A stretch of 64,000 nt of DNA from Botryllus schlosseri. Lineage: Eukaryota. Made by a program: the position numbers and the translations under genes. The stretch is from contig CM119371.1 in assembly GCA_051294905.1 (NCBI GenBank), forward strand, positions 17,238,001 to 17,302,000. Reading direction: 5' to 3'. Shown here in pieces: positions 7,099 to 61,600 of this stretch. Below the pieces are notes generated by a model that had not been told where the DNA came from, did no database searches, and saw only the letters and a list, made by a program, of their open reading frames with translations. Each line of letters begins with the position of its first letter. Positions within the stretch are counted from its first letter, which is position 1.

Positions 7099-7119
7099 AT
7101 CAGAACCTGACGGTGTTAG
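7099..7119 (+). CDS. Candidate 21-nt microexon upstream of the NACHT exon (xQNLTVL-G)
   Basis: TTTTTCAG acceptor and AG|GTAACA donor. It ends in phase 1, matching the phase-1 start of the NACHT exon at 8242. Confidence 0.4.
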
Positions 7120-7559
7120 GTAACAAAAATCGCCCTACTCGTTATACGTTCCAATAAATCTGAAATGCATTGTTGTTTAGACGTTAAGCATAGTTCTATG
7201 CTAGTGAATCGGTCTCCTAAGCACATGAAATGAAAAAAAGCTTGCCTGAGAAGTGTCACATCTTCAAAACATAATATCCTTTTACAAAAACTGTTCATGC
7301 GATAGATATCTATTTTTCTTTAAACCTACTAAACGTCGTATCAGATGCGTGAAATAAATGCGGGATGCTGACGCCTGGCACAGAACAAGAAAATAGGAGG
7401 CCTTTAGACTGAATGAAAAATAACAAAAGATAATATAAAAATGAAAGGGATGAAAATGAAATGGCATATGGAGTCGATATGCCACTTCATCGAGACGAGT
7501 GTGAGTCTGAGTAACGTGTATATTGTGTTTACACAAAGAATGAGTCATTAATCTATCTG

Positions 7560-8091
7560 AAATCTGATGATTCTCAATGATCCCAAAATATTCGCGATAA
7601 TTAGATTTGTGTGGCCAGCTGACTCGACTTGTACTCGAGTCACTGTTCATGACTCGAGCCAATTCATATGACTTGAGACTGGCACGACCAAGACAGAAAT
7701 TTCGTTATAACTTCGAAGAATAGTAAAGTTACCACATTATTGGTCTTTCGTCTGTCATTCCTGATAGGCCTACTTGGAAATTAGATCCAAGAAACGGTTA
7801 AGATTGCTGGAAATGACGATATTGAGATTGCGAGCCATTCTATATCACTCGCGCTGAGTTGAAAAAGTTGTCTGAAGTTGATTTAACTACTAAACTGAAG
7901 AGTGAACATATTTATTTGAATTTGGACGGACTCGAGTCGAGTCAAAACACTATGACTCGGATTCGACCATATACTTACTAGCTCACCTTAACTTGGACTG
8001 GACTCGAAGGGGAATTGAAATTGACTCTACTTGACTCTTGACTACTTGACTATAATATTCAGATTGACTGATGACTTGGTTACAAACCTGC
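7560..8091. mobile_element. Decayed GACTCGAGTC-rich MITE relic
   Basis: GACTCG/GACTTG arrays ending in TTGGTTACAAACCTG. Left boundary approximate. Confidence 0.5.
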
Positions 8092-8241
8092 CCTGGGTGT
8101 CGTTAAGTAGCATAAGTCTAGGTCTAGACCAGGCATATCGATTTGTTCAAAGTATTCAAAGTATCGTTCCGGAGACCCTGTAAGCCTGAGTTAACTGTCC
8201 GAGTATATGAACGGCATTGTAAAGGTTTCATTTTAAAACAG

Positions 8242-9392
8242 GTTTGGTGTATCAGATTAATAAAGAAACGAATATTACGCTTGAGAAACTACAGCACCGC
8301 CATTCCATTTCACAAATGCATCTCACGCCGATCAAGAACAAATACTCCCTGAGATATCAACGGTTGACCTTTGACAAATCGGTAAAGCACGTCGACGAAA
8401 AAGCTGATACGACGAAAAGAGACTTCTTTAACCCAGTGCCACTAGCAACAGTACATGAGCTCCAGAACAACCAAATCTCCTCAACGGTGCTACTTCTTGG
8501 GGGATCAGGCGAAGGAAAGACCACCACTGCAATGAGATATACCAATTTAGCTAAGAGAGGAGAAATCATCGGACCCTCTGATGTCAAAATCATAGTCTTC
8601 ATTGAAGGAAAATCCATTCACTGGAAAAGCAAGTGCAGGCCTTTTGATCTGTTATTTAAAGATCAATTTGCTAACATATTTACAACTGTGGAGGCTTCAA
8701 AACCGTTTGAGGACTGGATAGCCGAAAATCCATCTCAAGTTCTAATGATTATTGATGGCATTGACTTATCCAGTAGTGACTCAATCAGCTCTGCAAATGT
8801 AACTTTAGACATGCAGGTACACCCCATATCCATAATAGTAAACCTTCTTCGCCGAGTTATTTACAAGGGCATGTGGGTAATGTGTACTGCCGCGCCTCAG
8901 TGGCTTTGGAAATTGCCCTATTTTATAGATATAGAAGTTGTTCATATCGTGGGCTTCGACGAAGAGGACGTGCAGAATATCCTCGTACAACTCACGGGTA
9001 ATCGGCAACGTGTTGGCCTACTCCTTCATTATTATCCAGATATAAAACAGATCTGCAAGACACCAGCTACGCTGATACGCTTCGCACATCATATCAAGAA
9101 TAATGAAACAATGACTGATATTGAAATTCTTGATACGATACACTTTTTCCACTCACACCACCCTTGTGAAAAAATAACTGGACATGAGAGCATGAAGTTT
9201 GTGATGGCCGTCGCACACAAAGCAGCAACAACCGGAAGAATTGATTTAGAAATAGAAGAATCGAAACAGGATATCGTAAACGAAATGAGTCATTACATTT
9301 CGATTACGTATCCCCCAAACAGCGGAAGATTCAGTGGAAAGACAGCAATGTATCACCACACTCGTTTCAGATTTATTAGCAAAGCAGTACGT
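8242..9392 (+). CDS. NACHT (STAND P-loop NTPase) exon of an NLR-like gene
   Basis: Walker A VLLLGGSGEGKTT, Walker B VLMIIDGID, sensor-1 strand VMCTAAP, VHIVGFDEEDV and ICKTP. Acceptor TTTTAAAACAG and donor CGT|GTAAGT. Confidence 0.9.
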
Positions 9393-9520
9393 GTAAGTAG
9401 AACATAAACTACTCGTTACGTGTTACCTACATTTGCAATATGAAATTTCTCGACTAGATTGACTGATCAAACCCCATCGTGCTGCTGCGGCATCGGCAAA
9501 CATTAACTTACATCGTGCAT

Positions 9521-10139
9521 TTGTGGTGTTCAAAAAAAATTTCTAATTTCATCGGCTTCGTTTTCAAATTGACAGGTTACCTAAAAAACGTTGCGCACCA
9601 AATTTGACTCAATAACGACCGGTGGAAGCCGAGGTCAGTCAAATTGAAATTCGATCATTTTTGAAATAATAGTATTTATGGTGTCCAATTCCATCACACA
9701 GACATCACCGAAAATCGTGTTCCAGGTATGCCCGAAGAAGCAGGGATGTCTTTTCCACTTGTTTTGATCTCGACAATGGCCAATGGTAGAGTTTGGATGA
9801 ACAAATCGCCAGTAAACGGAGAAAAGATATGACACGGATTAGCTGGAAATTAGTCCACTTCATTGGAATAAACACGCTAAAACGATAGTGAGATAATTCC
9901 AAATATAATACTTTACACACTGTCTCTTCAGGCATACCTGGAACACGATTTTTTGTCATGACCATGTGACGAAATTGGTCACCGTAAATACTATTATTTC
10001 CAAAATGACCGAAATTTTAATTACACTGACCTCGGCTTCTACCGGTTGGAATTCAAATTTGGTGTGAAACGTTTTTTCAGGTAACTTGACGATTTGTGAA
10101 TCAAGCCGATGAAATTTGACGAAAAGAAGGACACCCCTA
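9521..10139. mobile_element. Long-TIR (foldback-like) hAT MITE
   Basis: Arms are imperfectly inverted over most of the element (e.g. AAAATCGTGTTCCAGGTATGCC / GGCATACCTGGAACACGATTTT). TSD TCGTGCAT. Related to 16426-16955. Confidence 0.82.
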
Positions 10140-10240
10140 TCGTGCATTTCATACCCTAAGCACGAACTTATACGGCATTGAACCTGTGGATAAGCCAAAC
10201 ATTCATATCACAATAAATGAAACTCGTAGTTTTTATAGTA

Positions 10241-10590
10241 TAGGGTTACCATATTTTGGAAATCTGAAAAGAGGACACTTATTCCAAATTTTCAAACTTG
10301 CAAAACCGGAGAAAAATCATTAAAAAATGGTAAATTTTTCCCACCTCGTGGTCGGATTACTAAATAAAGTCAACCTTCCGTCTCAGCTCCCGAAATACCT
10401 TCCGGGGCGTTACTTCGGTACTGATTTATGGCATCTCAGTCGAATTCGGCCGTTAATTTGACCGATATTCTGAGAAAAGCGGACAAAATCTCAAATAAAA
10501 AAGTGGATAAAAGGGTGTCCTCCGTGGACACTTTCAATAAAGTCAAAATAGTGGACAAATTATCTTAAAAGAGGATGTATGGCAACCTTA
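10241..10590. mobile_element. MITE family C
   Basis: TAGGGTTACCATA...TATGGCAACCTTA. Perfect TSD TTATAGTA. Confidence 0.9.
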
Positions 10591-11315
10591 TTATAGTAAA
10601 AGTTTTTGTTTTTGTAAAAATTATGTTTGTATTCAATTATTTGTCACTCATGAGATATGAGTTTTGATATAGTATCCACCCACATTCAATAAATCCCCTT
10701 CAGTTGCGCGGTCAGTTCGTAGTGCCTGGACACATAAAAGATAAAAAAAATACTTTCATGAGCTGCAAAGTTATTTCGCTCCTCGCATGTTAAACGGGGC
10801 AACGCACACTTCATTATTATCAAGACAATGCTTGCAACTCTAGTGTTGTGGTGCATTGACACCAATTGATAAATCAGGTCCTTAGAGTTCCCAATTTTGA
10901 ATGAAACTATGATATTTTTAGTAGTTGCATTATCGAAATAATTTTTCGGCATGCAACTTCCTAATCGCATTTGTTATGTAAATGCAACCCCATTAAATTT
11001 GGGGTTTGAAGCATCTGTCATGTAGTTATCGTTTGTGACGTCACTTTTGACGTCATGTCACTGCCTGCCGAAAGTGCCTTGAGCCAACAGAATCTTATCC
11101 TACAGCACTTTGTTTTCATCGTCGGTTTGCTATTTTCTTCGTACCTCTGCTATTGGATGTTCGTTCATTGTTCACTTTACACAGTAGTTCTTTATGATGT
11201 CTCATATCATGGCTGATTTATCATGGTACTACAGAGGCGCAAGAAATGACTAATATAATTTTGATACCAATTTACATCTGAAATAAAGTTATAATGTTGA
11301 TTTTAACTCATACAG

Positions 11316-11481
11316 GATATCTTAGCTGCATTTTATTGGCTCTCAATGGACGATATCAGAGACTACAAGAAGCTACAAGCGATATTATCTTTTTCCTATG
11401 TTCCGAATTACATTCTTATTGGAGTGGCAATCATTTCAGATGAAAAAAAATGGCCCTTTATAACTTCATGTTCAAATACAC
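11316..11481 (+). CDS. NLR-like gene exon: end of winged helix / HD2 (DILAAFYWLSMDD...)
   Basis: TACAG acceptor. The phase-0 join gives RFRFISKAVR|DILAAFY, equivalent to the NACHT F-H-S-QEFLAA motif. Donor C|GTGAGC is phase 1. Confidence 0.85.
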
Positions 11482-11549
11482 GTGAGCTCATAACTTTTAT
11501 CTGTGTAATCGTGCCTGTATGCAACACCCTTTTTGATGATACCACATAG

Positions 11550-11845
11550 GTGAAGACAGTTTGAGGCATCTACAAAAGCTACTGCTCAAGTTCCTCAAAT
11601 CGAAGAATAGAAGATCAATGATTAGCGAAGTCAAGGATCTTCAAATACTACGCAAATGCACCCTAGTTCTTGCTAGTGGTATTCTGTCGAAAGTGACCTC
11701 GATAAAAATGACGGCAAATTGCGATGCAGCTGATGTAATATCCGTTGCGCAATCAATTCCATCCATCGTTAAGGTGACGGTGGATCGCAGCATGACGATC
11801 CACTCGTCGTCACTGGCATTACTATTAGTATCAGTTTCTATGCAG
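11550..11845 (+). CDS. NLR-like gene exon (REDSLRHLQKLL...VSMQ)
   Basis: Follows a 68-bp GT-AG intron and is phase compatible. Donor CAG|GTAAGT. Confidence 0.82.
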
Positions 11846-12629
11846 GTAAGTTATGGTTCATCTTGAAATATTTCGCATACGTTAAATTATACGATATAAA
11901 ATAATCAATTTACGAAAGTGTGCGATACGTAGAGTAGATATTCAAGTATAATTTCTGAAATGTTGATAAATGGGCCCTACTTGAGCATCATGAACAATCA
12001 TTCATAATAGAATATCCTGCCATCTCAATATATACATGAAAAAAATGGTGGATATAACGTTATAGCTATACGGCTTTACGGGGCGCACCATTTTATATTA
12101 TGAATCGTCTAAAAACGTAATTGTTCTATTATTTGTTTTAAACGGCGTGGATTACATAGTGAGTAACAACTGGTTAAATTGTTTTGGATCTATATCTGGA
12201 TGCTCGAATCGCATGGTATATAGTTACATTTCCATATCTTGCGCTTGCGATCTTAAGAATATAAATGAATATATGCGATGCATAGCGGGAAAAAACGTAT
12301 CAGATGGCAACATTTACTGCGCCTTTTCTTATTTGTCTCATGAATGCCGAGTTGTCCACATGAAGATGCAGCACAGCATTATTAAATGCCCTAAATTTTC
12401 GAAGACTCCCCATCCATCAACTCTACCGGTGAATCTGAGCACATGGGTTGAGAAAGGACAAATATTTGATAGTAATATGTGAAGCTATACAAATATTAAG
12501 AACAAAATTCACCCATGAATATATGCACAATTTACGAGCTTCGCGGACAAGGAAGCGAATCCCTGTGACTATTAATAACATGGCTACTCACGATTTCGGT
12601 TCGCATAGTAAGCCGATATGAGTAAATAG

Positions 12630-13687
12630 TAGGGGTGGGGTGAACGTTGGATTCACGTTCGCGTTCTGTGGGTGAACCTCATAAATTTAGAGGTTCACGT
12701 TCACAAACAAACCTCGGTAGTTTCTGCACTGTGAACCTTTTTCATATATTACAATTTTTACTTAATATAAAATCTTTGGTTGAAATTTATTGCATTTCAA
12801 CTGCGGGCCACTATATGCATGAGTCTGGCAGCATAAAAAAGTCAACACTAAATGAGCATGCACCTTGACAATCTCAAATATTTTACTTGCCTTGTTACAA
12901 AAGTTTGCTCGAAATATACAGCTTTCCGTTTGTGAATATGTAGTGACTCTCGGCTCTGAGCTTGACCCGCAATCTCACAATATCAGGAAAGAACTACACT
13001 ACATGTAGGTAGTCAGCGGATGATGCTTATTTAACCAATCAATGAAATTGATATCGTTGTCTGATGTAAAAATCTAGCAGGCGTACTGGGTCAATCTTGA
13101 TTTCATATTTTTATTATATCATAAAAACCAAATCTGCGCGATTGGGGTGTTGGATACTGCTTTATTACTTGTTAATGGGGTAATATCGGTACCTCGCAAT
13201 TGTGTCTTATCGCATTGTACATTGCGTGTGTCTTGTTCGGATGAAAATATAACTGGACAAAAAAGTGTAGAAACCAATTTCAAACACTGCTCAATATAAA
13301 CGTAGCAATACTCAGACGCCGAATACGTTGTCCGGTCTGGCCTATAGACCGTGAAGGCATAAGCTTATATTCCCTTGCAAATACTCGTCGAACTTCCTGG
13401 AGAAGCGACATATGATCTTGATTTATGGGATTATTATATAATTTAAAAGCTCCAGTTGATACATTTGGCAACGTTTAAGGCGTCAATATGTACTTCAGTA
13501 TTGTGGCATTGTGTGGCCCGAGTCGTCGCTAGGTATCGTAGCTATCACCATACTGAAATGTAGGGTTGGAATTAGTAATATGACGTCAAGTGACGTCATG
13601 ATGTTCACTTTCGCGTTCACACAGAAACTTTCAAAAAGGTTCGCGTTCATACGAACCTGAACCTTCCAGAGGTTCATATCATCCCTA
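12630..13687. mobile_element. MITE family A
   Basis: TAGGGGTGGGGTGAAC...CATATCATCCCTA. Perfect TSD GTAAATAG. Confidence 0.9.
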
Positions 13688-14381
13688 GTAAATAGATTAG
13701 TCCGGAGTTACCCGGCAATGGACATTGACAGTTTAACGTGGGTATTTGGCGTTCAGTAAGTTCATTTCGACTAGGCACTGGAATGTGGCCGTAGGCTGCA
13801 GAAGTAATTGAATTACCGCCGTAAATTGCAGAAAAGGTTGGCCAATATCCTACTTCATTTGCTGAAGGTTGTCAGGTATCGTCTCCATTCAGTTCAAAAT
13901 AGAATGAAAAGGCTGATCATGATATTTTTGTTGCATTTGTATTTCTTCAATAAAATACTATTTCTTTTGTGGTAATTATGCCCGACCGCTAGGCTGAACA
14001 GCACAGCGTTGTGGTGACGTTGAGTTATTAAAAAGTCGTTGTTAAACCACGCTGCCTATTTTTATCACGATTTTAAAGTCGTGCGGTCTGTGGCCCGCGA
14101 CCCGTTTCGAGTTGGCGACCCCAGTTTTAGAGGACGAGACCTTGTATTTGCTCGTCACATCGTGAAAAAGGGGTCATGACATAATAAGTAGGATACTAAA
14201 ACATTTAGGAATCCTGCGCGGCCGACCTGCAATAGCTTCGCGACCCACCGGTTGGGAAGCACTGATTTCACTATGTCGAAAAGTAATGTAATGTGTTTAA
14301 CAAATGATGTCTTGTGTAAAAAAAACAAAATTTCAATTCATCACGTCCAACTCCGGTATGTAGCGGTCTTAAATCATTCAG

Positions 14382-14537
14382 ATAACCGAATTGAAAATTG
14401 TTGGGGAGCTGCAGGAAGATACTGAAACATTGTCAAAACTGCTGGCTACTTGCTCCTGCTCAGAAGATTCAAGTTCCTCTACGTTTAAAATGGGATCCGT
14501 CGAGCTGACGGATTATAATATGAAGTACGACGTTGCG
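14382..14537 (+). CDS. Phase-0 exon (ITELKIVGELQ...KYDVA)
   Basis: CATTCAG acceptor, GCG|GTGAGT donor, 52 open codons. Confidence 0.72.
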
Positions 14538-15532
14538 GTGAGTTACCTGGTTCAATTTCTGACTCCGATCATCGCATCGGCTATTCTAGCTTTGAGCCTA
14601 ACAGTGTTATCGAGTTACACCGTGCGTCCCGAGACCACGAAATACAATTTTAATCTTAGTATGGTGCGTCTTCGTCGGAATGTTTGAAACTAGGGTTACC
14701 GTACTTTGAGATACGAGGAGGTCCAGAGGTCACTTTTACAATCGTTACTCACAGACATTGAAAGGCGGTATTTATACGGAACATAGGGATCGGTCGTCGG
14801 TCATTTTTTTTTGCCGATATTAACACTTTTAGTTGTCGCATTTCGGTGTTCTTGAAATAAAGAGGACAAATCCTTCTGAAAGATGACATATGGTATCCGA
14901 AATGAAACGGAAAAGGTGCAGGCAACGACTTGTATACGCTACGCGGTCCTGTAAAAGATAATTCATTGTAACAACGTCAGTGAGTCGGTGAGGTTGGCGT
15001 AGCGACGTAGCCAGAAAAATGGAGGACAGCAATTATTCGATGAGTTCGGGTGACCTACAAAGTGTTGGTTTTAAGCATGGATCCAACACCATAAAACTAT
15101 CATCGTCCTTCATCCTCACAGAGAGATCTGCAAAACTTTCTGGGCGCAAATCGTTTCTCAGACCCCCTTATAATATAGCTCATTTCATCTCTTCCTTCGA
15201 CACATATTTACACACAGAGACTTTTCGTATCGAGCCAAGTTCGATAACGGTGTACGCTAAACCATATCATATCATGGATATCGGCTTAAAAAAGTAACAT
15301 AATCACTTATATTATTGTATTGAAAATCAGTGTGCGCATAATTTTCAAAGTTAATGAGTAAATTTGGGTATTAATATTTGTACTTGGATGTATTGCGTGT
15401 ACCAGAGATGACTCGTCACAAGATGAGAGGCAAGGCGTGTGAATATATGTTGGTATTGATTGGGCATTCTAAAGTGATACTGCAACCTGTGGCGTGACGT
15501 GTTATCGTCAAACTGCTGTATTCATTTTTCAG

Positions 15533-15727
15533 CGAAATTTTCTTGAGGTCAAGGAATTGAAGGAAAACACAATCACCGTCGTCAACGACCTCTTCAAGTT
15601 TACCAATGGAGGCGCGACTATACAAGTCCAAAATATAAACATGGAAACATTTACGAGACAAAGCGTGCGGGCACATCTTGAGAAAATAACCAAGATGCCA
15701 GAAGATGCAAATAACTGCGTATTAAAG
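15533..15727 (+). CDS. Phase-0 exon (RNFLEVKELKENTITV...NCVLK)
   Basis: TTTTTCAG acceptor, AAG|GTGAAG donor, 65 open codons. Confidence 0.62.
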
Positions 15728-16425
15728 GTGAAGACGATGAGGCTTCAGTTAAGCTTGGCGTTTCCGCCCGTCGATAAGTGTTATTCGATGAGAAAGAAAT
15801 GGCCATAATACCATTCACGATTTATCCAAGACAGCGGCATCACGATTCAAAAGTAATTCTCTTTCCCCACCATGTTGCCGTTGTTGTTTACTTTAAAAAA
15901 TATTTGTTTGCTGCCATCTAGCTATAATGCACCTTGTACAGTTGAAACTGGGTAATGCGAGCTCGATTTAGTGACCGATCACATATAAGCATTGGATATA
16001 TGAACGGTGTAATCACCCTTTTGAGCAGTGACTACGAGCCACGGCCCCTCGGTATAGCCTTCTTGCGGCTCTCATAGACCTCTAAATATGCTCCTAAATA
16101 TAATAGACGACGGATGTTGAATAATTATAGGTATATTTATAGTCAATTTCTGTATTTGAAAGCTAAACTGAGGGTTATTAGTTATGTATGAAGCCGTCGA
16201 AGGCCGCTTCCGAGAATCGGGAAAGAGAATTCTTGCGTACGCATGGATGCACACGACATGTGTTCTGCTGACCATGGACCGTTTTATATCGTCCCTGTGA
16301 AGAGTAGAATTCGACACAATTTTATTAACATCGCAATAACGGCTCATAGTTAAGTATAAATTGCAATAAGTTCAATGTTACTCAGCTTACGATCTTGTGT
16401 ATTAGGTGATGAAATGCATGAAGAG

Positions 16426-16955
16426 TAGGGTTGTTCAAAAAAAACTTTTTTCTCCAAATCTCACTCGCCTGATGACTAAACCGTCAGGTTGTCCAAGAAA
16501 ACGATGCACACAAAATTTGACTCAATTCCAACCAGTAAAGGCATTGCAATCTTTAATTGAAATTTTTTAATTTAAATAATAACAATATAAAAAAAAATTC
16601 TCAAATTTTTCTCTCAACCCCATGAAATTGTTGAGCTGTCTTCAAAGACGATGGAAAACGAATTTGAGTGAATTCCGACCAGTAGAAGCGGAACTATTTG
16701 AGTTTTTCGTTAATAATCCCCGGATCAAGGCTAATCCGAGAATTATCAACGAAAAACTCGAATAACTCCCTCTCCACAAGTTGGAATTCACTCAAATTTG
16801 TTTTGCATCGTCTTTGAAGACAGCTCAACAATTTCATGGGGTTGACTGATTGGAATTGAGTCAAATTTGGTGTGCATCGTTTTCTTGGACAACTTGACGA
16901 TTTAGTCATCAGGCGAGTGAGATTTGGAGAAAAAAGTTTTTTTTGAACAACCCTA
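16426..16955. mobile_element. Long-TIR hAT MITE (TAGGGTTGTTCAAAA ends)
   Basis: About 100-bp TIRs plus internal inverted repeats. Perfect TSD ATGAAGAG. Confidence 0.93.
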
Positions 16956-17445
16956 ATGAAGAGCTATCACAAAGTTACATAATAGTATTGCCTAATTTAC
17001 AGTAATGATCCGCATTTTTAGTTTATTCCAATGTATAGCAATCGCCAATCTGCGTATATCCATACTAAAATACCCGATGTTTAATGGCTATAAGTATGTG
17101 CGCATGTGCTTTGTGCATTTCTTGGAATTCGCTTGATAATAAGATCCAGATGTAGGCTAGCTATACCTTTAAATATTCGCTTTAAGTAGCGTACTCGAGT
17201 GTTTCCATGTGGCTCCATACGTACTCGGAGGTTTGAAATGCGGGTCCGACATCCAGAAAGGTCCGGAGCCACTGCCCTTGAGCCAAGCCGAAGCCGGATA
17301 AAACACCCTTGCTAGAGCCTTAATTAAAAATGCCACACAAATGTTTTATACAAAATAAAACAATCTGTAGTAGACTACTGAAAACTCTTGTTCGTATTCG
17401 CCTTTACTCATTACGGCTTTTATCTTTCTGTTGGTTGTTTGACAG

Positions 17446-17577
17446 GTTAAAGAATTAACATGCCCAGGGCAGACCGATGCAATAATCGAATTAGAGGAGC
17501 TAATGGCGAACAGGGACCGAATTCAAATTGACGTTTTGAAATACGGAAACGTGAAGGTTTTGCCAGAAATCCAACCG
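17446..17577 (+). CDS. Phase-0 exon (VKELTCPGQ...PEIQP)
   Basis: Pyrimidine tract plus GACAG acceptor, CCG|GTATGA donor, 44 open codons. Confidence 0.65.
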
Positions 17578-18187
17578 GTATGAATTCTGTGACCATAGCT
17601 TGAAATTATTCAAATGTATGATTGATTTTGGGTTACTTATGAATGCATGCATCACGGGATATTACTTCGGCGTAACTTAAACCTGATATTAACGAAATAG
17701 GCCTAATTCGCGAGAACCACCTCGCAGAAAATTAGATATACCTTCGCACGGAACTAATTGAGAAATATTATGACAATTTTATGACATCCTAATAAGCGTA
17801 AGAGCGTTTTAATATTTATATTTCAGAAATATATGTATCATGCAATAATGTAAAACCATGTGTAATAATACAGCTCTGTTTAACATATTCTGGCGATTTC
17901 ATCAAATCAAGTCGCCATGGGCAGATGACTTCAGATCGAAGCAATCAATGTGTCACATTATAAAACTATATTGGGCTACCTCATAAATATGTATCATGAC
18001 TTGAGGGGTGATATTCTGAACATTTGTGATTTTATATTCATTTTTCATTTCGCGAGCAATATAGTAGTAAAAGATGTCGAAATGCCGATCGGCAACATTC
18101 GCGAACTTACTCGAGCATTCTGAGTACGCTCAATTTTCGTGAACCAGCGCGGAAATGTTATCGGAAACTTGAGTGTGTTGATATTAC

Positions 18188-18569
18188 CAGGGTTGCATTT
18201 AAAACAAATGGTTGTTTAAAACAATATTTTAAACAGAAGCCTTTCAAAAAATAAAATTTCAAGTTGTAAAATCGTGCCGTAATTGTGTAAATACTTTCCA
18301 AAAACATGATGTATGAGCCTTCCGACAATTACCAACCGACTTATACGACATAAGATGGTTGGAACCGTCAAAATAGTCGGTTCAACAAGTATAGTGCGTA
18401 GATATTTCGCCAGAGGAGCTATATTTACCCTACATTTTCATTTGTCAATGTCAAGCAACCATGACGTCACGATTCGTGGCGCCATGTCTTGAAAAACATA
18501 AGAAACATGTTTTAAGCAAGGGCATTATTTTAAACATGTTTGTTTTAAATTGTTTTAAATGCAACTCTG
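18188..18569. mobile_element. hAT MITE (CAGGGTTGCATTTAAAAC TIR)
   Basis: Ends GTTTTAAATGCAACTCTG. TSD GATATTAC/GATTTTAC. Relatives near 21427-21792, 50740-51301 and 60950-61407. Confidence 0.82.
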
Positions 18570-19927
18570 GATTTTACTTTTGTTTTCCACAGCTGATGCT
18601 CGCAGTTGCGCATCTTTAGATCTGATATGGAAGCCACGTGTAGCGTGTCAATAGCCAGATACAGTATGATGCTTCATCGAAATTCAACTCGAATTCTTTC
18701 ACTCAAACCTCAAAATTGCAAACAATCCTATAAGTCCCCGCAAACCCAGTGAAATGAATAGCTTCGCCGCCTATCTACATCACATACGTGCTCTTTGTAC
18801 AGCTTATATGTTTCAAAAGTTGTGACCAAAGTGATCAACTAAACATCGTTGTATTTGAGAACTAAAAATTAAATTGCCAGTATATATCTTCGTCGTATCA
18901 TAAAGAATGAATCTACTTAGTGCTGTGACCAACAACCCAACATGCACATAATAATATATAGATAGCTCCGATTGGAGTGCATGAATTGTAAAGTTACGAA
19001 CTGGGCATAGTATTACCTATGTTCTGACGAACTGAATTCAATGTGAGCGTAGGTATGTGACACATGTTCGATTGATTTACTAGTCACACAAAACAATGAA
19101 GCAAAATACAATATACTTTTACTGGATCGCCAATCGGAGTTTTGGAATCGAGGTGTGCACATTTGGCTCAAATCATATTTGTAAGAGCCCGTACCCAATA
19201 GTTGTTGTAAAGACCTTGCTTTGATTAACTTTTTATTAGTCGAGTGGTCATCGAACGCTATTCACAAATATTTCCTATAGTTCCCATGAAGACACACCCA
19301 CTACCCAAGCTTTTTAGTATAGGCCTCAAAGCATGGGGACGCCAGACCAATAGAATTCATGAAAATATTTTGCTAGGGAAAAGGATAAGAACCACTGGCC
19401 ACTGAACCACTGAATCATCTCACCTCGTGATGACGCCGAATTAGATCTGGTTATGAGATATACCACCTATCGGAGCTCGGGATTCATGGCCCTCAATCCT
19501 AAATGAACATAGCAATCCTCAGAAATATCACTTAATGAACGGATCAATTATCAAACCGAGAACAATCAAGGCAAACGTCAGTGTTCACTAGTTGGAATAT
19601 ATATTTACACGGCAATTATTTTTGAAACGAAGTGACAACAATAATTTATCAGTGACACATCAAGTTTTCGAGCGCCGAGCGACTATCATACGCAAAGCAA
19701 TGACATAAAACTATTCATATCTTTGAATCTTTGAACATCAGTAGTCGTTACGAAGCCCCATTTATTTAATCTCTGCACGATTTATGTTAGGTGATGAACA
19801 ATCCAAAAAATGTCGTACATTGTAGAGATGAAATCAATCAATTTGTTTGACATTCAGCAAACATATTTTATCTTGTAGGTACATTACCAACAAAGATACT
19901 GCATGCATGACATACCTTCTCTTTCAG

Positions 19928-20074
19928 GGCAACTGTGTCAACAACACGTCGTTTCTCAACATGGACGAGGAGTTAACAGCATCCACGGCTTTGGTATCTC
20001 TACTTAAAAGAGGCTTTGCGAGCAATGCTCTTACAAGAGATTTTAAAATCTCTGTTGAATTCAAAAGCGATGGG
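19928..20074 (+). CDS. Candidate phase-0 exon (GNCVNNTSFL...VEFKSDG)
   Basis: CTCTTTCAG acceptor, GGG|GTAATT donor, 49 open codons. Confidence 0.45.
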
Positions 20075-21834
20075 GTAATTGTTGTGTTTGTATAAATAAA
20101 GGCTCGATCACACATAATGAAGTCAGATCAACAACTAGAGATGCGACGGAGCATTTCTTTGTATCTTTATCCTAATCATTGCGAGCGCCATTCTGGGCGA
20201 ATGACTATGTGACGATAGCGCGATGGTACCTATTTTGTTGCTCTAATTGTCTCGGTGAGATATCGATTCGTGGGAGGGCAGTTCGGGCCATGCATGTGAA
20301 TGGCGATTGTTTACGAGACAAGATCTTGCAGATGCTGCCTGACCATCGAGAGAGAGAGAGAGAGAATTCATTCGGTCCATGAACATTGATAATACACAGA
20401 TAGATAATTATAAAGCAAAGTATATATAATTTAGAACCAGGCTGTAGCGAAGGGATCTGGAGATCATCAAGTCAGCTACAGCCTGAAAGGATGGTCGTAA
20501 TATGAAGCTTATACCATAATATAACACTTTCGCAAAGCAAAAATATAACATATTCGCAATGTATCAGAAACAGATGAACATCTCTTCGAAATCGTACATT
20601 ATTCCGAATCGGTAAACTACTCCGGTGCGCAGTCAGCCAAACGCTTCACTGCCCGATCATTGTGGCCACCTCGTGGCTTTGATATTGAGAACCATACCCC
20701 GCGTTGGAATGATCGATTCAATGAGATCGTGCCTTCAATGCACGTTCGTTGCACGTTTTCGTTCTTTCATTGGCATTAAAACGCAACTTGCACGTTATCA
20801 TACCTTCCAATCTTCTACCCAGAGCATATCATCCAATAATCACCACAATAAATGTAAGAATGATGTGGTACCGATGGACCAAAAATTGCAAAATGATCTC
20901 TGGCCCTCAAATCTTCAGCCGAGAATAGCAGTTCTTTTGCTGGCTCAACACTTTCATCCAAGCCCTAGCTATCGCGGACATTTACATGAAATCCGCCTTT
21001 TCAAAAAATATTTATGAACCTTCAAAATGTATTGCCTGATTTAGCTATGGTACCATAGGCCCCCACGATATAAATATTGTAATTGGATTGAAAATAGTCC
21101 ACTCGAAGATGGTATCGAAATAAAACATATGTAGCATTATATACCTTGATACAAGCTCTGCACTTCACATTAAAAGTTATGGCTGGTTTGTTAGTATGGA
21201 AGGGGATATAGAAAAATGTATACGGCGATCCAAATTTGTTTTACACCACCAAAAACATAATTAATCCGTCACAGACCCCCTAACTCAACCAGGTCGAATT
21301 TTTCTGCTAGTGAGGAAAGATTCTGCCAGCATGCAATTGCAGACTAATTCGAATGCTGTAATCATGGGATTAACACGTACGTATTTTTGATCCGACTGTC
21401 TCCTCGGAAACAAATCTCCCCTACTTAAGGTTTGCATTTAAAACAAAAATCAATTTAACACACTTTTTATAACAAGGCCCTTGTTTCAAACTTGCTTTTT
21501 AAACCTATGACGTCACGAATATTCAATATTGACGTCATAGTGGATTGAAATTGCCAATTGAAAATATAGGGTAAATATAGCTCCTTTGACGAAATATCTA
21601 CGTACTATAGATGTTGAATCGACTATTTTGAGGGTTCCAAACATCCCATAGCATATACGTCGGCTGAATACATTGGTAGTCGTCCGTAGGCTCATACAAC
21701 ATGTTTTTGGACAGTATTCACGCAATTATGACATGATATTACAACTTAAAAAAACGCATGATTTAAACAAGCATTTGTTTTAATGCAACTTTAAATGTAC
21801 TGTTATACGCTAAATATTCCATGATGGCTTTCAG

Positions 21835-22014
21835 CATAATCACAGATATCCATTTGCCCTGCGAATTGAGAGTACCGCCAAGAGAGACAGTGATCGGGTA
21901 GCATTTGATCAAATCGTTTCTTTCATGATCAAACTCGGATGCGAAAAACTGGATTTTTCTGATATGAAACTATCATTATCGGTGCAATACATCTGTGTAA
22001 ATGAAGAGAGAAAT
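21835..22014 (+). CDS. Phase-0 exon (HNHRYPFALRIE...NEERN)
   Basis: TTTCAG acceptor, AAT|GTGAGT donor, 60 codons. First of five consecutive exons. Confidence 0.75.
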
Positions 22015-22075
22015 GTGAGTGTTTTACGTGACTAACGGATACTGAATCAATAATTCGTGATTTTATTTGTGAAAG

Positions 22076-22258
22076 GTGGAGAAAATTACACTACATCAAT
22101 CCTCACTGGGACAGGGGGTACAAGCAATCAAGTCCTTACGAGTCTTTTCAGGAACGTTGTACGCGGACATGTTGAAATCATTGTTTCAAAGATCCGATGC
22201 GCCCAGAATTGAGATCGTACCTTTAACGTTTCAACGGTACTGCACTGATCAGGGCTCG
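22076..22258 (+). CDS. Phase-0 exon (VEKITLHQ...DQGS)
   Basis: Follows a 61-bp intron. Donor TCG|GTAACT. Confidence 0.75.
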
Positions 22259-22328
22259 GTAACTGATGCTGACGTCAATATCAAATAACTCAGTAGGTTT
22301 ATCCGGTGCTACTAAATTTCTGTTTCAG

Positions 22329-22496
22329 TTGCCGAATGAATGGATCTATAAGGTGTTGGATCTCGAATGTGAGGCTTTCAAATTTTTACATGATATTCAA
22401 TCGCTATTGAAAACACCACCGGCTAGAGTTGGTCGCTGCTCATTGAATGTCACCGAGATATCATTATTGGGGAAATTGGCATCCAGCTTATCACAG
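22329..22496 (+). CDS. Phase-0 exon (LPNEWIYKVLDLE...SSLSQ)
   Basis: Follows a 70-bp intron ending TTTCAG. Donor CAG|GTTGTG. Confidence 0.72.
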
Positions 22497-22562
22497 GTTG
22501 TGGAAGTTTCCATTACAGAAATGACAACAGCCTAGAGACCTCGCATTTGTTTACAATATCAG

Positions 22563-22694: not shown

Positions 22695-22759
22695 GTGAAT
22701 GCTTGTCGAAGTTTGGAGAACTTCGAACACGAAGGTATTATTACTTTCATATCTTGCAG

Positions 22760-39215: not shown

Positions 39216-39224
39216 GTCTATCAT

Positions 39225-48258: not shown

Positions 48259-49997
48259 CTATATACTCGGTATAAGACCTGAGCTAGTTTTCACCCGATT
48301 TTTCCCACACGAATAAACGGTCAACGGCGTATTATATATACGTGAAATGATAATGTATATTCAAGGACACTGTTCTGGAAGCGACACGTAATAATACGAA
48401 ACAGCAAATCGACATGTTGGAGAATATTACGCTGCGATTCAAGGTTAGTAAATAAAGGAACTGAATAAATTGTTAATACTGTTCCCATTACTAGAGCAAT
48501 AATTTTAGACTTGACCTTTAAAGACAAAATCAAGTCATAATTACCGATTATGTCAAAAATTTTTTACGAACTATATTGCCGTATCGTGTTATATGTTGCC
48601 AGGTCAGTACTTTTATATTTTACAACTTGCAGCCTATTTCAATATTGCGTAATTTACCTAAATGAGTTTTTTTGGGATTGAACATTTGTCCAAATTGAGC
48701 TCATTTTTATTGTCCAATGTATTAAAAAAAAAGTGAACTGTAAAATTTTTGATATTATTAGATCAAAATCATTCATTTTAGACACGAACATAATCGACCA
48801 AGTGGTTACATTTTCGATTTTTTATTTGGCTAGGATGGAAGGGACTTAGATCGGTAAAACAGTATCGTAGGAATGTTCCATAGCTATTAGCTGGGGTATC
48901 AATGCAGCCGGAATCGTATGCTTTGCTATGCATCTGAAACATCCACAATAAGGCAATTATGAATGCAGGATCTTCGAATAGACACATTGACTGTTACGGG
49001 GAAGGGAGAAGACATCGAAGCAATCACAACAGATTTAATTATGAGAAAAGAAAACACGAATTACTTGTTTCAGGTAGCTAAATTTTGCTCGAATAAATAC
49101 TTTGTTGCGCCGATAGCAGACGTGAGACGATATATATAAACGTAAGACCTTGGTGGCTTCCACACACTATTTAACGTCTACTTGCAAATGAATATACCTT
49201 TATTAGTTGCACGAGCTTTCAAAGCTCTGCTCCTTCATCTGGTGTTAAAGCGAAGGCTCGTGTAACTGATCAAGTTTTGTTCATTGACAAGTGGGCCTTA
49301 AATAGGATGTGAAGGCTGCCGGGATCTTACTCCAATGAATGCAATAATTGTATATTTAAATGAATAACGTATATAATAAAATTGTTCCATTGTCAAAGCC
49401 AATAAATAGTCTATAGGCATATAAGCGACTGATTTTCGATGTACGCCCCCTAATAAGACAGTGTTTTCAATGACACCAAAAGAAGTTTCCCACGAAAACA
49501 CCCAAAAATTCAGAAACGTCAACATTTAACGTGTTTTACGGGGTGGGGTTTGGGATATTAGGTTTGTGAATGACTAATATTAGGAATTGGAGATGGCGGC
49601 TTTGAGTTGCGGGATGACATATACTAGGGTTAGTGGACGGCGGATATTAGGAATTAGAGATTACGGTAATTTAGGTTGTGGGATGACAGATATTGGGGTT
49701 GGGGGACGACGGATATTAGGTTGGGGTGAAGAACTCCAGGGTTAGCAACATTAGGGTAGGGAGGATTGGGGTTGGGATGAAGGGTATTATCCATAACCAC
49801 AATCTAAGTCTAGCATCCTTTAGTAATCTCTCATACCAAAACCCTTATATCAGTCATCCCCCAATCCTAATATTTGTCATACCTTACCCCCAATATCTGT
49901 TACCCCCTAACCCAAATATATGTTTTTACCAACCCTAACTTTAGTCATCTCTCACCTGCCTATCCCCGGATTTTAATGTGCCTAAACTGACTCGAAC

Positions 49998-51653: not shown

Positions 51654-51824
51654 GTCAGAAGAATAAAGCTTGATACTTTGTCGCTGAACAACCACCAATT
51701 CATAACAAAAGTTTTGGATTCAGGAGTTGCTCTAGATGCGAAATGCTTGCTCGTTGACGAGCCGAAAGAGTGCCTTGAAAACTGGGAAGCAACAATGAAT
51801 ATTATCAGGAATAATATTTTCAAG
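51654..51824 (+). CDS. Phase-0 exon (VRRIKLDTLSL...NIFK)
   Basis: TTCTTTTCTTACAG acceptor, AAG|GTGTCT donor, 57 codons. Confidence 0.68.
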
Positions 51825-51977: not shown

Positions 51978-52115
51978 GAATATTCAATCAAAACCAAGCA
52001 TCAACTGGTGCATGTCACCCAGACTATTAATGGCATAGCACCGATTGTACACGCTCAACAATTATTGGATAAAGATGGTGAACGAAACATTGGAAATCAT
52101 CACAGCCATACATCG
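51978..52115 (+). CDS. Phase-0 exon (EYSIKTKH...HSHTS)
   Basis: ATAACAG acceptor, TCG|GTGAGT donor, 46 codons. Confidence 0.58.
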
Positions 52116-53021: not shown

Positions 53022-53119
53022 GATAATTCAGAAGCAATGTTCTTCCGAGCACTTTTTGCACCACCGCGAATGACCATAACCACGACGAGTTTTTGCAACA
53101 AAGGTTTGAAGTTATGCAC
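53022..53119 (+). CDS. 5' half of an exon split by the 53120-59689 transposon (3' half at 59698-59731/59742)
   Basis: TTTCGTTCCAG acceptor. The frame stays open across the rejoined TSD to a GTAAAA donor. Confidence 0.5.
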
Positions 53120-53723
53120 TAGGGTTGTTCAAAATTTAGAAAATGTGTGGAATACTGCGTATACCTGGCTTATTCTGCAGATAATTATTAAAAAACAATA
53201 ATGGGCCTGAAATAAGCTCGCAGGAAAGCCGGTAAGATTTGTCTAAATGCACTAGAAAGTAGCAGTCCGCTGGAGGGGGGAGGGCAAACAAAAGCCAATA
53301 ATCTTGATTGGTTGAAGCCGGTAATAATATGCTACTGATTGGCTGAAAGACCAACTTTGTGAACACTGCTGGTAACGATTTCTGTCTATGCTGTCGTGCA
53401 GTCGTTTCTGTTGGTGGCATTGCAGACATGATAGGCCTATATTGATATCGGTAATGTTGTCATCGAGAGTCCATAGTGCAACATTATAGCTCCTAAGGCA
53501 GGGACGGGCAAACTACGGCCCGTGGGCCGCATATACCGTTTTGTGCGGCCCGCGAAAGGCCCAACAATCGTATTTAAAATATTGAAAAATGCGCAGTAAA
53601 AATCTAATTTCTGCAGGTACTTGATTAAACTTTTTCTCATTATATTTCTCCATGAATAGCATAAGTTATATTCTGACTAGTATATTTTATTTTATTCCTG
53701 GGGCGATAGCCCGACCTCAAGGC

Positions 53724-56369: not shown

Positions 56370-58640
56370 TTTGAGTTTACTTCCTGTGGTCACGGACTGT
56401 CTTCCTATGCTGCTTCCACAGCTTGAAGCGCACTGTCTCTTTGTTTTTCATTGGCATAGTCCAGTGGTTACCAACCTTTTTCACCCACGCACCACTTCAA
56501 GGTTTGATGCAGTGCTCGCGTACCAGCAACATAATTTACGCAAGCCGTAGGGCGTAGTCGGTCAAAAATGTTTTAACCATTTATGACGACATATTCACGT
56601 ATTTGACCCATGTGTCGTGTAATAACTAGGGTGATTTATTTACATAAAAGTCGGAGGATTCGAACCTAAAAAACTTAATTTTGACCAAAATTTTACCTCA
56701 CGCACGCTAATTAGGTGAATTGGCATATAATGTTAAAATTGAACTACTTAATTCATTTTTGGTTGGCACTGTCTGTCCTTGCAAAGTAGTTTTGCCTGAA
56801 AAAGCGTTTTTGACTTGAAAACTGACATATTTTGATATAAATTTTTTTAAGGATATCTGGACCAGTAGTTACAACATTTATTATGGTAGAGTTAATAAAA
56901 ATTTGTCGTAGCACAACGAAAGATACTTTCCTACATTCTCGTGTAGAAAGTGTCTGTCCTTATAATAAGTAGCTTGCCAAGAATGGGAAAGACCGTTCGA
57001 AAGCAATAGTTGTTGGCTGACAACACTGAATTTGTGCGTGCAATCTACACTGCTGGTGATACACCATGATGCTTCATTCTGACAATGTTGTCATACATGT
57101 CAATTTTATATCATGCGCTTCTTGATAAAAAGAACCATGCAATGCCCAATCAGTCTTGCTTCAAATAGGATATTGCGGTACGTTGAGCCTAACATCATGT
57201 CAATTGTCAACCTATTCGTTTCGTTTGACAGTTTATGATCCACGATCAGCAGCCAATAGGCTGTCTACAACGGTAGGCTTATAAAGTTGGCTACAAGCTG
57301 TAAAATAACAAAATCTAAGATGCAAACGAAATGAAGGGGTCAAAAAATGTTGACTTTGTAAACAATTTTTTGATTTAAAGCTTCAATTCTGTCAAAATAT
57401 TCGACCTAGTAATAAAAATATCTATTAAGCTAGGCATTATCAGTCCTAGTTGATTAGATGCATGGAATTGTTTTTCCACTACTAGTCAAAAAAATTCAAA
57501 AAATTCCAAATCAACCCCACCTGAATTATCAACTTCCTTCATTCCAAAACAAAAAACAGAATCTACTCGCGTACCACCTGGAAGACCTTCGCGTACCACA
57601 GGTTGGGAACCACTGGCCTAGTCTGTGCTAAGCTTCAAACCTCGTTCTGCGGCATCATAAACGACTTTGCCAGAACAGATGTAGGAGCTCATTCTTGTAT
57701 AGAAATCTGATAAGTGCTAAAGATCAACCGGGTGAGCTAGCCACGCCCAAAAGCATTCATAAACATCAAATATGTACCTTCTGCAGGCCCCTTCTGAAGC
57801 TTGAAGTTCGCTTTACCTGCAGGAGCATCTTTGTCATGTTTTCTCGGGTTTCATTGATTTCGCTCGGCGAAAACAAGGTATATACAGAGGTTTTCTCCAC
57901 GATATATCATTCATGCTTTAAAAGCTTCCGTTAAGCAGCTTTGGAAACGTGTCCATCATGTTCCATGTAACTCAACATGTCCTGTATGAAACTCAAGTCA
58001 TTACCGGCTGAATCACGGCCGACGCTGAATGCTGGGATCAACCCAGGCAGGGATATAAAAGAGAACTGAAAATAAATTGAAGCGATGCAGTAGTTCCACT
58101 TCTCCAGATTGTAATGTAACTGATCAGCCAACACGAACATCTTATGAGCATACATAATTGTGACCATCCATCTTGCATGGTGTGTTGCACCAGGTTTGTG
58201 ATGATGTATATTTTCACCTGCAACGAGAAGAGCAAGAGCATCACATACATTGTCTGTAGTCATCCAGTGTGAAGAAATCTTTTCCGGTCAGTAGCAGCTT
58301 GAAGTTACCAACTGTCACTGCATGCTCGTTCTTTAAAACATATAGGAATAGTCAGAGTCTTGAATTTCTGCTTTCTGTCAAGACTGCTCCAGCTCTTCCT
58401 AAAGTGAGCAAACCATATTCACTCCATCTTTAGTGCAGGTTTTGAAGTAATTGCACCACATGTGACTTCTGCATTGTCGCAATTCTCGCCATTTTCCGCA
58501 CTGTCCTTACATGGTCCGCCACCACATTACTTAATTCATGGGTAGGGGTTGACTGATGACAATGCTCTTTCATATGCAGCAAGTAATTCTTTACTTCTCG
58601 TATAGTAGGTGATCTCAAGCCACACATGTAATTGCAAGTA
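56370..58640 (-). pseudogene. Fragmented hAT (hATm-like) transposase
   Basis: N-terminal PTIREVKNYL (58430-58627), PGATHHARWM (57931-58263) and KVVYDAAERGLKL (57630-57668). The last joins across a MITE TSD to DYANEKQRDSALQAVE. Many stops and frameshifts. Confidence 0.78.
56462..57615. mobile_element. Buster-like MITE inserted in the transposase
   Basis: CAGTGGTTACCAACC...GGTTGGGAACCACTG. TSD GCATAGTC/GCCTAGTC. Confidence 0.85.
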
Positions 58641-61600
58641 TATCGAAGTACTACTCAGATTTAGACCTTGTTCTTCGCTGCGGCATGTGTATAATCTTTC
58701 GCCGTTTTGCCTTGTCATTACTGCAATATGGTTGCTCCAAATCATATAGCCTACTACTGCTATTGAATCTAAAGCATTCAACGAATACGTGTTATAGTAC
58801 TGCTAATGACGAGGGCAAGTTTTTGCAACTTTTGCAACTTTTTTACAGCTTCCGGCAGCTTCCTAAATACTCGAAAGATATGTAAAATGCTGTTTTAAGC
58901 TGTTTGAAGGAATCTTATAGTGCAATTTTTTGCAACTTTTGTCCTTTTTTTTTCATGCAACTTTTTGCAAAATTTTGCAGCTTTTTCGAATTCAATGAAA
59001 GCATTCTTGATTTGGGTGAAATACACGGCAAAATTCGACTGAAATACCGTAAATCAGCACTGAAGTAATGCTCATACGGGTATTTCGGGAGCTGAGCCGG
59101 AAAGCTTACCTTTATTTCAGTCAATCAATAGAGAATGAGGATGGAATACTCTATTTCGGTATTGGAACTGGGAAGTTGACCTTTTTTTTAGTCAACCGAG
59201 CAAAATGTGGTCTTTTAGTGCAACTTTTGTGAAAAAATAATTGTAACTTTTTACTGCAAGTTTTGTCAAAAATAAATGCATCTTTCCACGGATTCAACTA
59301 TAACAAAAACTTGCATTTCTATTGGCATCAATCCACAAATAGCTTGTACAGAACCATAGCCGCTACTAACACACTCGAACTCAGCAAAACAGACTTCGGA
59401 ATTAGTAAAGCGAAGCACCCGAATCCGAGTCAGCTGTTGCAGTAATCCTTGGAGATTAGCTGATTAACCAATCAAAACTGTGCTTTCGTGATCGCCCGCC
59501 TATCGCAACTCTGCTGTTGGTAGCCCGCCCACTCTTCAACAACGACTTTCAAGCGGATTTAGAAAAATCTTACAGACTTTCCTGCGAGCGTCATTCGGGC
59601 CTATTATTGCTTTTTTTAAAACAATAATCTACAGAATAAACCATTGATAAGCAGTATTCCAAACATCTTCCAAATTATGAAAGACCCTTTCATGCACCCT
59701 TTTGAATTTATATATACAGACCGTCGCGTTAGTAAAATGAGGGTAAATAAGGTGTATTTAGCATGCTCCATTATTGCGTGGCGTGCAAATCCCGCCATCG
59801 GCACTTTTTAGTAATGAATTCTACCTTCACACCTATTCCAATGGATGAATGAATGAATCTTATACATCAATCTTAACGAGGGTATATCTCAGCGGTGCGG
59901 TTGGTTCACTTTTCGTGTATCACCTTCTTGCCCTTTCTTGAAGGGAGTGGAAAGGGGTGTAGTTACTAGATTTCCAACATAGCGTAGGGTCCAAATCAGT
60001 CCATCATTAACCACTGGTACAAAATTTTGATTTCAACCTCATTTTAATAGTGAGTGGAAACGAGTCACATACATCAATACTGCTAAAGTTGTACACAAAG
60101 CGTACAATGGGTACCTCCTTGGAGCGACTTATGGGGTGGTACACGAAAACAGGACCCTTCTTCCCTGGGATATGTCTGTATATGACTTCTTTTCACATGT
60201 CAGAATGATCACGTACGCCTGTCCACCACTTCATTTGACACCATATCATTGTTTCATGCAATCAAAAATATATGTTTGGTAAGGGTGGTAGGCTTCATAA
60301 GAACGCAGACGTTCATGAAAACTCAATTATGAACAAATGTGAACAAAGTGATATGCCGTTGAGAGATGTAATAATCCTAACTCAGACGCAAATCTATTTT
60401 TAGATCTAAATGTTCCATAATGATGTCATAGGATCCGTGGTTAGATAACGGACCGAAAGAGCCTTAGTTCGAACCAATGTCCTCGGGTTGTTCGGATGAT
60501 CTTTTTATATCAATATAGATTCCTCCCTGTTCTATCCTTACTATCTTGCTAAGGATTCAGACAAGTGAATACACGCGTCTTTTACAGTCAAGATATTGCT
60601 ATTTACAGAATACCGTGCATACTTCGGTTTGCATCAGCTCGAGTCCCAGACCGTCACATGTGCAATCCACATGTAACCCTCTAGCTAGATATGTCATGCA
60701 ATGAACTTAGTGAGTACGCAACACTCCCCACTCACTGAAAGTGGCATTTTAAGCTCGATCATACTGCTTTCTTACTGTGCGGGAAGATATAAACCAGTGG
60801 TCACTAACTCATAATGGGCAAACGACAAATTTTTAGCGTGGAATATCGAAGGATAAATAAGGTATTCGCTATAGCCAATGTTTAACAGGTTCTACGGCAC
60901 TGCACCAGTCGAAACCCTGTATTTCATTTTGTATATGTTATAATTTATAAATATTATTTTAAGCCATGAACTCACGAATATTCAATTGTGTCGACATAGT
61001 AGATTGACATTGACGATTGAAAATATAGGGTAAATATAGCTTCTTTGAGAAATAGCTTTTCAACCTCTGGACCAAAAATTTCTATGACCATGACTACATT
61101 GTCATGCAGCAATTTTACAGTCATCATCACCAGAAACTTAATTACGTACCAGTGATCTAAATCTACGTATTTCAGCTGTTGAACCGACTGTTTCGAGGGT
61201 TCTAAGCGACCCATATCGCGTCAGCTATATCGGGCGGTAATCCGCAGGCAAATACAACACATCTTTTTAAAAGTATTTACACAATTATGGCATAATATTA
61301 CAACTTAAAAAATTATAATTTCGTTTTAGGCCTTTGTTTAATACAATGGTTAAAACATGTTTTGAACAAAGCGTTTTAAACATCCATTAATTTTAAATGA
61401 ATCCCTAGGGATAATGGTTCTAAACACGAATTTATGAGACCGTTATATACATATCCGAATGTCACATTGTTGCAATACGGAAATAAACGTCGCCTTCTCA
61501 GTTATTCGCCACCTTTATATATTCCAGGATCTCCTCCACCTCCTCCGCCACCTAATTCGTTAGAATTCAAGCAAAGAAACGGTAAGATCACGTCAGATAT

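Follow-up and report, generated by a model that had tools for sequence, protein, structure and literature searches.

What kind of protein is encoded when an exon for a NACHT ATPase domain is followed, over tens of kilobases, by a long row of short exons in which no canonical leucine-rich repeat (LRR) can be read? This question is raised by a locus of Botryllus schlosseri that lies in a stretch of 64,000 nucleotides (GenBank assembly GCA_051294905.1, contig CM119371.1, contig positions 17238001-17302000, forward strand), which is referred to here as the window. The original prediction, made from the letters of the window without database searches, had placed a very large gene of the NOD-like receptor (NLR) kind at 7099-59742, with an extremely divergent solenoid as its sensor and with exons that might be shuffled or skipped to diversify the receptor. 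It was found that the window holds a real NACHT gene, which is shorter and more ordinary than first proposed. Taken as a whole, the evidence leads us to favor, with some reserve, an intact 21-exon gene for an ATPase of the NACHT class of STAND proteins (signal transduction ATPases with numerous domains), in which the tail would be a degenerated LRR-type solenoid and whose family would have formed by tandem duplication.

The exon model was built from a scan for open AG...GT intervals, followed by a comparison with paralogues on the same contig (called A, B, C and E below). It consists of 21 exons (E1-E21) on the plus strand, with a coding part at 8256-53201 and a frame that stays open for 1,471 codons. 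Exons E1-E20 splice into 4,236 nt (1,412 codons) without a stop, with GT-AG at all introns, and E21 contributes 59 codons before the stop is reached. The NACHT exon continues in frame through two exons as had been predicted, with their borders corrected to 11316-11481 for E2 and 11550-11845 for E3. Beyond E3, where at least 15 short plus-strand exons had been expected, 18 were found (E4-E21), 16 of them spanning 44-67 codons; tail exons as a whole measure 78-201 bp (26-67 codons). The claim that nearly all introns are in phase 0 was borne out at 19 of 20, the exception being the 68-bp intron that separates E2 from E3, which is in phase 1 and has the same GT and AG in three paralogues. The five consecutive exons at 21835-22957 (E8-E12) are separated by introns of 61, 70, 66 and 65 bp, in agreement with the 61-70 bp given beforehand. 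The description of the gene as very large fits the locus, which extends over about 45 kb with repeat-filled introns, two of them large (7.8 and 14.5 kb), but not the protein, which has about 1,470 amino acids. The exons are as follows.

8256-9392, plus strand: E1, an N-terminal stretch of about 85 residues, the NACHT NTPase with Walker A GGSGEGKTT, and a helical region after it; donor CGT/GTAAGT
11316-11481, plus strand: E2, 55 codons and 1 base, part of the helical NOD module; present in A, B, C and E with the donor GTGAG kept; inside the hhalign match to Styela NACHT proteins
11550-11845, plus strand: E3, phase 1 in and phase 0 out; homology to other NACHT proteins ends here, followed by the first LRR-like strand-helix units
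14382-14537, plus strand: E4, 52 codons, starting ITELKI; conserved in paralogues
15548-15727, plus strand: E5, 60 codons; conserved in paralogues
17446-17577, plus strand: E6, 44 codons, starting VKELTC; conserved in paralogues
19928-20074, plus strand: E7, 49 codons; conserved in paralogues
21835-22014, plus strand: E8, 60 codons; first of the five exons with 61-70-bp introns between them
22076-22258, plus strand: E9, 61 codons, starting VEKITL; conserved in paralogues
22329-22496, plus strand: E10, 56 codons; acceptor in paralogue E not placed
22563-22694, plus strand: E11, 44 codons, starting IDELNL; conserved in paralogues
22760-22957, plus strand: E12, 66 codons; conserved in paralogues; predicted beta-alpha-beta-alpha by AlphaFold2 (AF2) at a predicted local distance difference test score (pLDDT) of 70
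30796-30936, plus strand: E13, 47 codons, starting VDELAC; conserved in paralogues
31840-32040, plus strand: E14, 67 codons, starting IKEVLI; conserved in paralogues
32390-32533, plus strand: E15, 48 codons, starting ISSVNV; conserved in paralogues
33708-33890, plus strand: E16, 61 codons; conserved in paralogues
48366-48443, plus strand: E17, 26 codons; conserved in paralogues
48969-49073, plus strand: E18, 35 codons; conserved in paralogues
51654-51824, plus strand: E19, 57 codons, starting VRRIKL; conserved in paralogues
51978-52115, plus strand: E20, 46 codons; donor GTGAGT conserved
53022-53198 with stop 53199-53201, plus strand: E21, 59 codons, probable last coding exon; homologous terminal exons in A, B and C

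We sought support for this model among the relatives of the gene in the same genome. A search with the NACHT exon across the 495-Mb assembly returned six close copies of the exon (42-63% identity) on the same contig at 16.43-17.00 Mb, and the family thus numbers seven tandem copies in a 0.9-Mb cluster. Five were compared, namely the window gene, A, B and C (regions of 60-70 kb) and E, the most distant (40 kb). After the NACHT exon, E1-E20 were all encountered in the same order in A, B, C and E, which agrees with the predicted single multi-exon unit headed by NACHT. Protein identity over the four paralogues is 40-65%, and that of single exons in A-C is 33-68%. In A-C, AG/GT borders stand where projection from the window puts them for all 20 exons, the exon lengths equal those of the window in 17/20, 18/20 and 14/20 cases respectively, and the spliced frames are open for 1,415, 1,412 and 1,405 amino acids. 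All 20 exons were also found in E, 19 of them with AG/GT borders, the acceptor of E10 being the one not placed. Similarity between copies is limited to the exons, except for dispersed repeats, whose matches fall in more than one frame and on either strand. The ratio of nonsynonymous to synonymous substitution rates (dN/dS) between copies, taken over five pairs, is 0.21-0.35 for E1-E3 and 0.30-0.59 for E4-E20, below 1 in both parts, and identity is 34-59% in the tail versus 41-73% in the ATPase module. Because of this conservation, the shared borders and the dN/dS values, E1-E20 are real coding exons that are kept by selection and travel with the NACHT exon as one unit, and they may be joined in a single transcript.

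Of the two copies outside the comparison, one lies near 16.89 Mb on the same contig. In the other (16673733-16674434, minus strand), similarity to the NACHT exon is confined to residues 1-236, with 58% identity, and this copy may be truncated or interrupted.

The two ends of the gene were then delimited by the same comparison. Past E20, the window and paralogues A-C have a single block in common, a terminal exon running into a stop, with 59 codons in the window and 43, 64 and 40 in A, B and C (range among the three, 40-64). The terminal exon is the least conserved of all, and the match of E21 to the paralogues is weak (E 0.018). Further downstream, including 59635-59742, paralogue similarity in the window is multi-frame or non-colinear, and we therefore end the coding part at 53201; the 3' limit of 59742 was not upheld, its last 6.5 kb being unsupported as coding. 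At the 5' end, E1 has two possible acceptor AG sites (before 8242, in phase 1, and before 8256), both conserved in the paralogues. No in-frame ATG common to the window and the paralogues was found, and a tblastx comparison of the first 8.2 kb of the window with 10.6 kb above A and 1-2 kb above B, C and E returned no conserved upstream coding exon; the 5' limit of 7099 was thus not confirmed. Since no in-frame ATG is shared, a short coding exon upstream of E1 is likely from the sequences. Pfam searches of E1 and of 36 plus-strand open reading frames (ORFs) in window positions 1-8349 detected no CARD, PYD, Death, TIR or BIR effector domain.

The presence of a NACHT domain was confirmed. An ORF at 8223-9407 matches NACHT (PF05729) with E 9.8e-14 and 52 bits against a cut-off of 26.7, and its Walker A (GGSGEGKTT) and Walker B (IIDGID) motifs vary little or not at all among the five paralogues. 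Outside relatives are few, with a HMMER search of 1.84 billion representative proteins giving 33 matches, the best of them 28-30% identical. The named best matches are two uncharacterised Styela clava proteins, XP_039248824.1 (2,508 aa) and XP_077976001.1 (1,650 aa). By hhalign, the five-gene alignment matches Styela NACHT proteins at 99.8% probability (E 8.5e-28) over residues 60-484, the latter in mid-E3, and both Styela relatives are homologous to the window protein from before the P-loop through the end of the helical module. The Styela proteins aligned up to residue 484 carry Pfam NOD2_WH, a winged helix, whereas the window protein itself has no Pfam winged-helix match. Like the window protein, XP_039248824.1 has its NACHT about 85 residues from the N-terminus, no effector domain and a long tail after the module; some other Styela members carry Death domains, none of which was found in the window protein. 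A homologous-protein search with the NACHT exon at the 'longer' setting gave no match. In sequence searches of the PDB, the NACHT exon had no matches and the NACHT profile met only P-loop proteins at E > 0.1.

The same genome also appears to hold a larger, mainstream NACHT family. Elsewhere in the assembly, no fewer than 63 other NACHT-exon matches are more distant, with 21-27% identity to the window NACHT exon. These other NACHT genes resemble the window gene in having NACHT in one exon of about 400 codons, and they are 31-37% identical to the Styela proteins (E 1e-48 to 1e-61). Because the Styela proteins are closer to these genes, the window family of seven is a divergent side branch. It was also noted that a Styela clava Death-NACHT protein shares 31-37% identity with at least 28 single-exon NACHT matches, which are distributed, partly in clusters, over contigs C3, C1 (the contig of the window, at 23.4-24.8 Mb), C9, C12, C14 and C15.

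The harder question is the nature of the tail, the roughly 940 residues from the end of E3 to E21. One line of evidence that connects it to LRRs comes from the gene structure. It had been claimed that many exons begin with a strand-like motif, placing introns at a fixed repeat position, and the motif proved real. Among the 17 exons E4-E20, eight have as their very first residues a [LIVMFC]xx[LIVMFC]x[LIVMFC] motif that four or all of the five paralogues share, where about 0.5 exon starts would be expected by chance from 26 motifs in some 940 residues; three more have the motif 3-6 residues in. When the window was scanned for open phase-0 AG...GT exons that have the motif at their start, seven distinct starts came up on the plus strand, all of them at conserved exons, and none on the minus strand. 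As PMC6642158 describes, most human NLRs have their exon border at one fixed place of the beta-strand with two LRRs per exon; arrays of the NLRP3 type are built of uniform 171-bp exons that each encode a 28 + 29-residue pair. Because the fixed border matches these human tails, we take the window tail to be an ancient array that arose from duplicated two-unit exons, with sequences that can no longer be recognised as alike. The rapid evolution of tunicate proteins is remarked on in PMC8662601.

Some structural evidence at the start of the tail points the same way, and it is thin because only single exons, out of context, were folded. AF2 run on E3 (98 aa, five-sequence alignment) gave a best model of five with pLDDT 86.3 and a predicted template modelling score of 0.76. 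This model contains three helices and then short strands at 50-53, 74-77 and 96-97, about 24 residues apart, each with a helix after it. The Foldseek list for E3 (best E 0.067) includes, by title, NLRP1 twice, NOD2, NLRC4 twice and NLRP3 (six rows), and many further entries are LRR proteins, such as FBXL17, tropomodulin/leiomodin, Mex67, TIR1 and NLRX1. In the language-model comparison, every named neighbour of E3 belongs to an LRR family, with scores of at most 0.83 that serve as leads only.

From these observations, a protein of about 1,470 residues is proposed, with a short N-terminus lacking a recognisable effector, a NACHT-winged-helix-helical module (E1 to mid-E3) and the tail of about 940 residues. 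The tail would most likely be a strongly degenerated LRR-type alpha/beta solenoid that came from duplication of a two-unit exon, as in NLR tails of the ribonuclease-inhibitor class, and the surviving trace of this origin would be the gene structure, in which phase-0 exons are symmetric and have their start directly ahead of a beta-strand motif. If the protein works like other NLRs, the tail may keep the ATPase in a closed state from which a ligand or perturbation releases it, after which nucleotide exchange and then oligomerisation could follow.

A considerable body of results weighs against the LRR part of this proposal. The prediction of no canonical LRR held, as Pfam gave no LRR family at E <= 1 for any of the 20 peptides encoded by E2-E21. 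The Styela tails are composed of clear 56-57-residue double repeats with a 28-residue period, whereas the window tail has no detectable repeat or similarity to them. No six-frame ORF was matched by a hidden Markov model built on the Styela repeat (best E 1.1), and hhalign of the tail against the Styela repeat reached E 0.05 at a probability of 1.1%; the second-best local match to XP_039248824.1 does pair E10/E11 with an LRR unit, at a P of only 0.06. A tblastn comparison of Styela-type library matches with the window recovered the NACHT exon alone. Among 153 exon-pair profile comparisons the best P was 0.006, about chance level, and tblastn of 12 exon peptides against the window gave self matches only. 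Hydrophobic periodicity at 20-40 residues had a power of 0.40 in the tail versus a shuffled mean of 0.80 (Styela control, 3.3 at 28 residues), and the 26 strand motifs in the tail do not exceed those of shuffles (21.5 +/- 4.1). E11 offers a near-canonical unit, the Asn/Gly of which are not kept in the paralogues. On the structural side, a single E3 model of the five was confident (pLDDT 41-63 in the other four), all E3 fold matches lie below the tools' own noise levels, and the E12 model gave no LRR match. By sequence, then, no known repeat model fits the tail.

The Pfam result deserves little weight in this group, because the Styela tails also lack a Pfam LRR at E <= 0.01 despite their sharp 28-residue period. 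The remaining negatives suit a different account, in which the gene is real and the tail is not an LRR region. It would instead be a new alpha/beta sensor region, formed of another repeat or of unrelated small domains, with a start motif of other modular origin. AF2 folded E12 (66 aa, pLDDT 70) as beta-alpha-beta-alpha with 8-residue strands, longer than LRR strands, and its matches are generic alpha/beta folds. No usable language-model neighbour was found for E14, and PDB sequence searches returned nothing relevant (no matches with the E11 profile, two irrelevant ones with that of E3). Set against this are the three weak lines by which the tail start is LRR-like (the E3 model, its fold matches and its language-model neighbours), the LRR-type double repeats that the closest outside relatives from Styela carry at the same place, and the agreement of the exon plan with the LRR plan of known NLRs (PMC6642158); single exons folded out of context are, moreover, poor evidence. 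A three-chain complex prediction of the E3 end, E4 and E5, run with alignments unused and without controls, scored 0.01. The predicted long, divergent solenoid is thus weakly upheld at the tail start by the E3 units and not by E12 in mid-array. We regard a non-LRR tail as possible, if somewhat unlikely, and retain the degenerated LRR solenoid as the preferred reading.

Expression was assessed by mapping four bulk RNA-seq runs that carry the label of this species to 8001-28000, with 6-13% of each run read. Depth on E1-E12 was zero in all four runs and no joint matched an intron; all mapped reads were partial matches to intronic repeats. These data count against an intact, working gene and would fit a copy that is silent or decaying, an unexpressed family member. 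The large repeat-filled introns, the weak conservation of the terminal exon and the failure to find a start exon would agree with such a state. However, the frame is open in each of the 21 exons, every splice site is intact, and dN/dS of the window copy against its paralogues is 0.32-0.59. The bulk runs were also read to that small fraction only, and weak expression, or expression confined to a small number of cells, is common among sensors of this kind. We therefore consider a silent copy quite improbable.

A bolder account would make the tail a new kind of modular sensor, with about 18 individually conserved symmetric exon units that each open with a beta-strand, a solenoid-like or multi-domain surface unknown among solved structures, cassette skipping, and membership in an effector-less, lineage-specific NACHT family; the combination strikes us as very unlikely.

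With respect to exon variation, the original prediction had offered symmetric exons as a means of receptor diversification and had suggested a search for paralogues with different exon counts. No such paralogue was found, as all four keep the 20 exons E1-E20. The exons are one-to-one in all five genes compared, each with its own conserved sequence, and accordingly nothing points to shuffled exons or to changes in their number. Further points against diversification by shuffling are the identical lengths of 14-18 of the 20 exons in three paralogues and the mutual dissimilarity of the exons. Instead of shuffled exons, it is the tandem duplication of whole genes, together with a tail that diverges faster, that gives the family its variety. 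A mechanism of modular LRR exons that can be skipped would not be new, since symmetric LRR exons with exon skipping, including the skipping of one LRR exon in human NLRP3, are already described for vertebrates in PMC6642158. That the exons serve as cassettes whose skipping yields a repertoire of isoforms is the least probable account of all: 19 of 20 phase-0 introns would let any run of tail exons be skipped in frame, with the NLRP3 case as a documented precedent in that same source, yet no isoform variation was observed (depth on E1-E12 being zero), the one-to-one exons of near-identical length and exon-specific conservation speak for a fixed full-length protein, and symmetric phases are a by-product of exon duplication.

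Vertebrate NLRs with exon-modular LRR tails of the ribonuclease-inhibitor class, such as human NLRP3 (Hoss et al. 2019, PMC6642158), share with the window gene a NACHT module followed by a long tail of many short symmetric exons, an exon border at a fixed beta-strand place, about two strand-helix units per exon and, in principle, the possibility of in-frame skipping. The window exons differ from the NLRP3 type in that they span 26-67 codons instead of a uniform 57 (no uniform 171-bp exons were found), and the tail lacks the 28/29-residue period, the LRR consensus and the Asn/Cys ladder. Unlike vertebrate NLRs, the window protein has no PYD, CARD or other effector that could be found, and its NACHT exon matches no solved NLR by sequence. 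The definition in PMC8662601 describes an NLR as NACHT with terminal LRRs, and C-terminal LRRs recognisable by sequence are absent from the window protein.

Read in this way, the locus displays the drift of an NLR-type tail in which repetition has been lost from the protein while the exon plan would still record exon duplication. Censuses of NLRs that are based on domains (NACHT plus LRR) would miss both the window family and its Styela relatives, so that invertebrates, tunicates included, may have more NLRs than have been counted. In the tandem cluster the tail evolves faster than the ATPase module, and its genes may form an immune or recognition family specific to this lineage.

Several other elements were noted in the window. 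Downstream of the gene, adjoining ORFs of 408 and 307 aa on the minus strand (61794-63944) match RVT_1 (E 1.4e-21) and RNase H (E 9.9e-10) and represent a retroelement. Intron 12 contains a tRNA-Leu gene (anticodon UAA) or a tRNA-derived element at 28111-28195 on the plus strand, with 32.9 bits in Rfam and agreement from ARAGORN. A dispersed repeat is present in three copies (about 2700-3700, 12630-13700 and 42590-43600) and is also encountered in introns of A, B and C. The RNA reads of all four runs pile on a piece of about 40 nt at 13199-13238 and then continue into unlike sequence, which indicates that a related, expressed copy of the dispersed repeat lies elsewhere.

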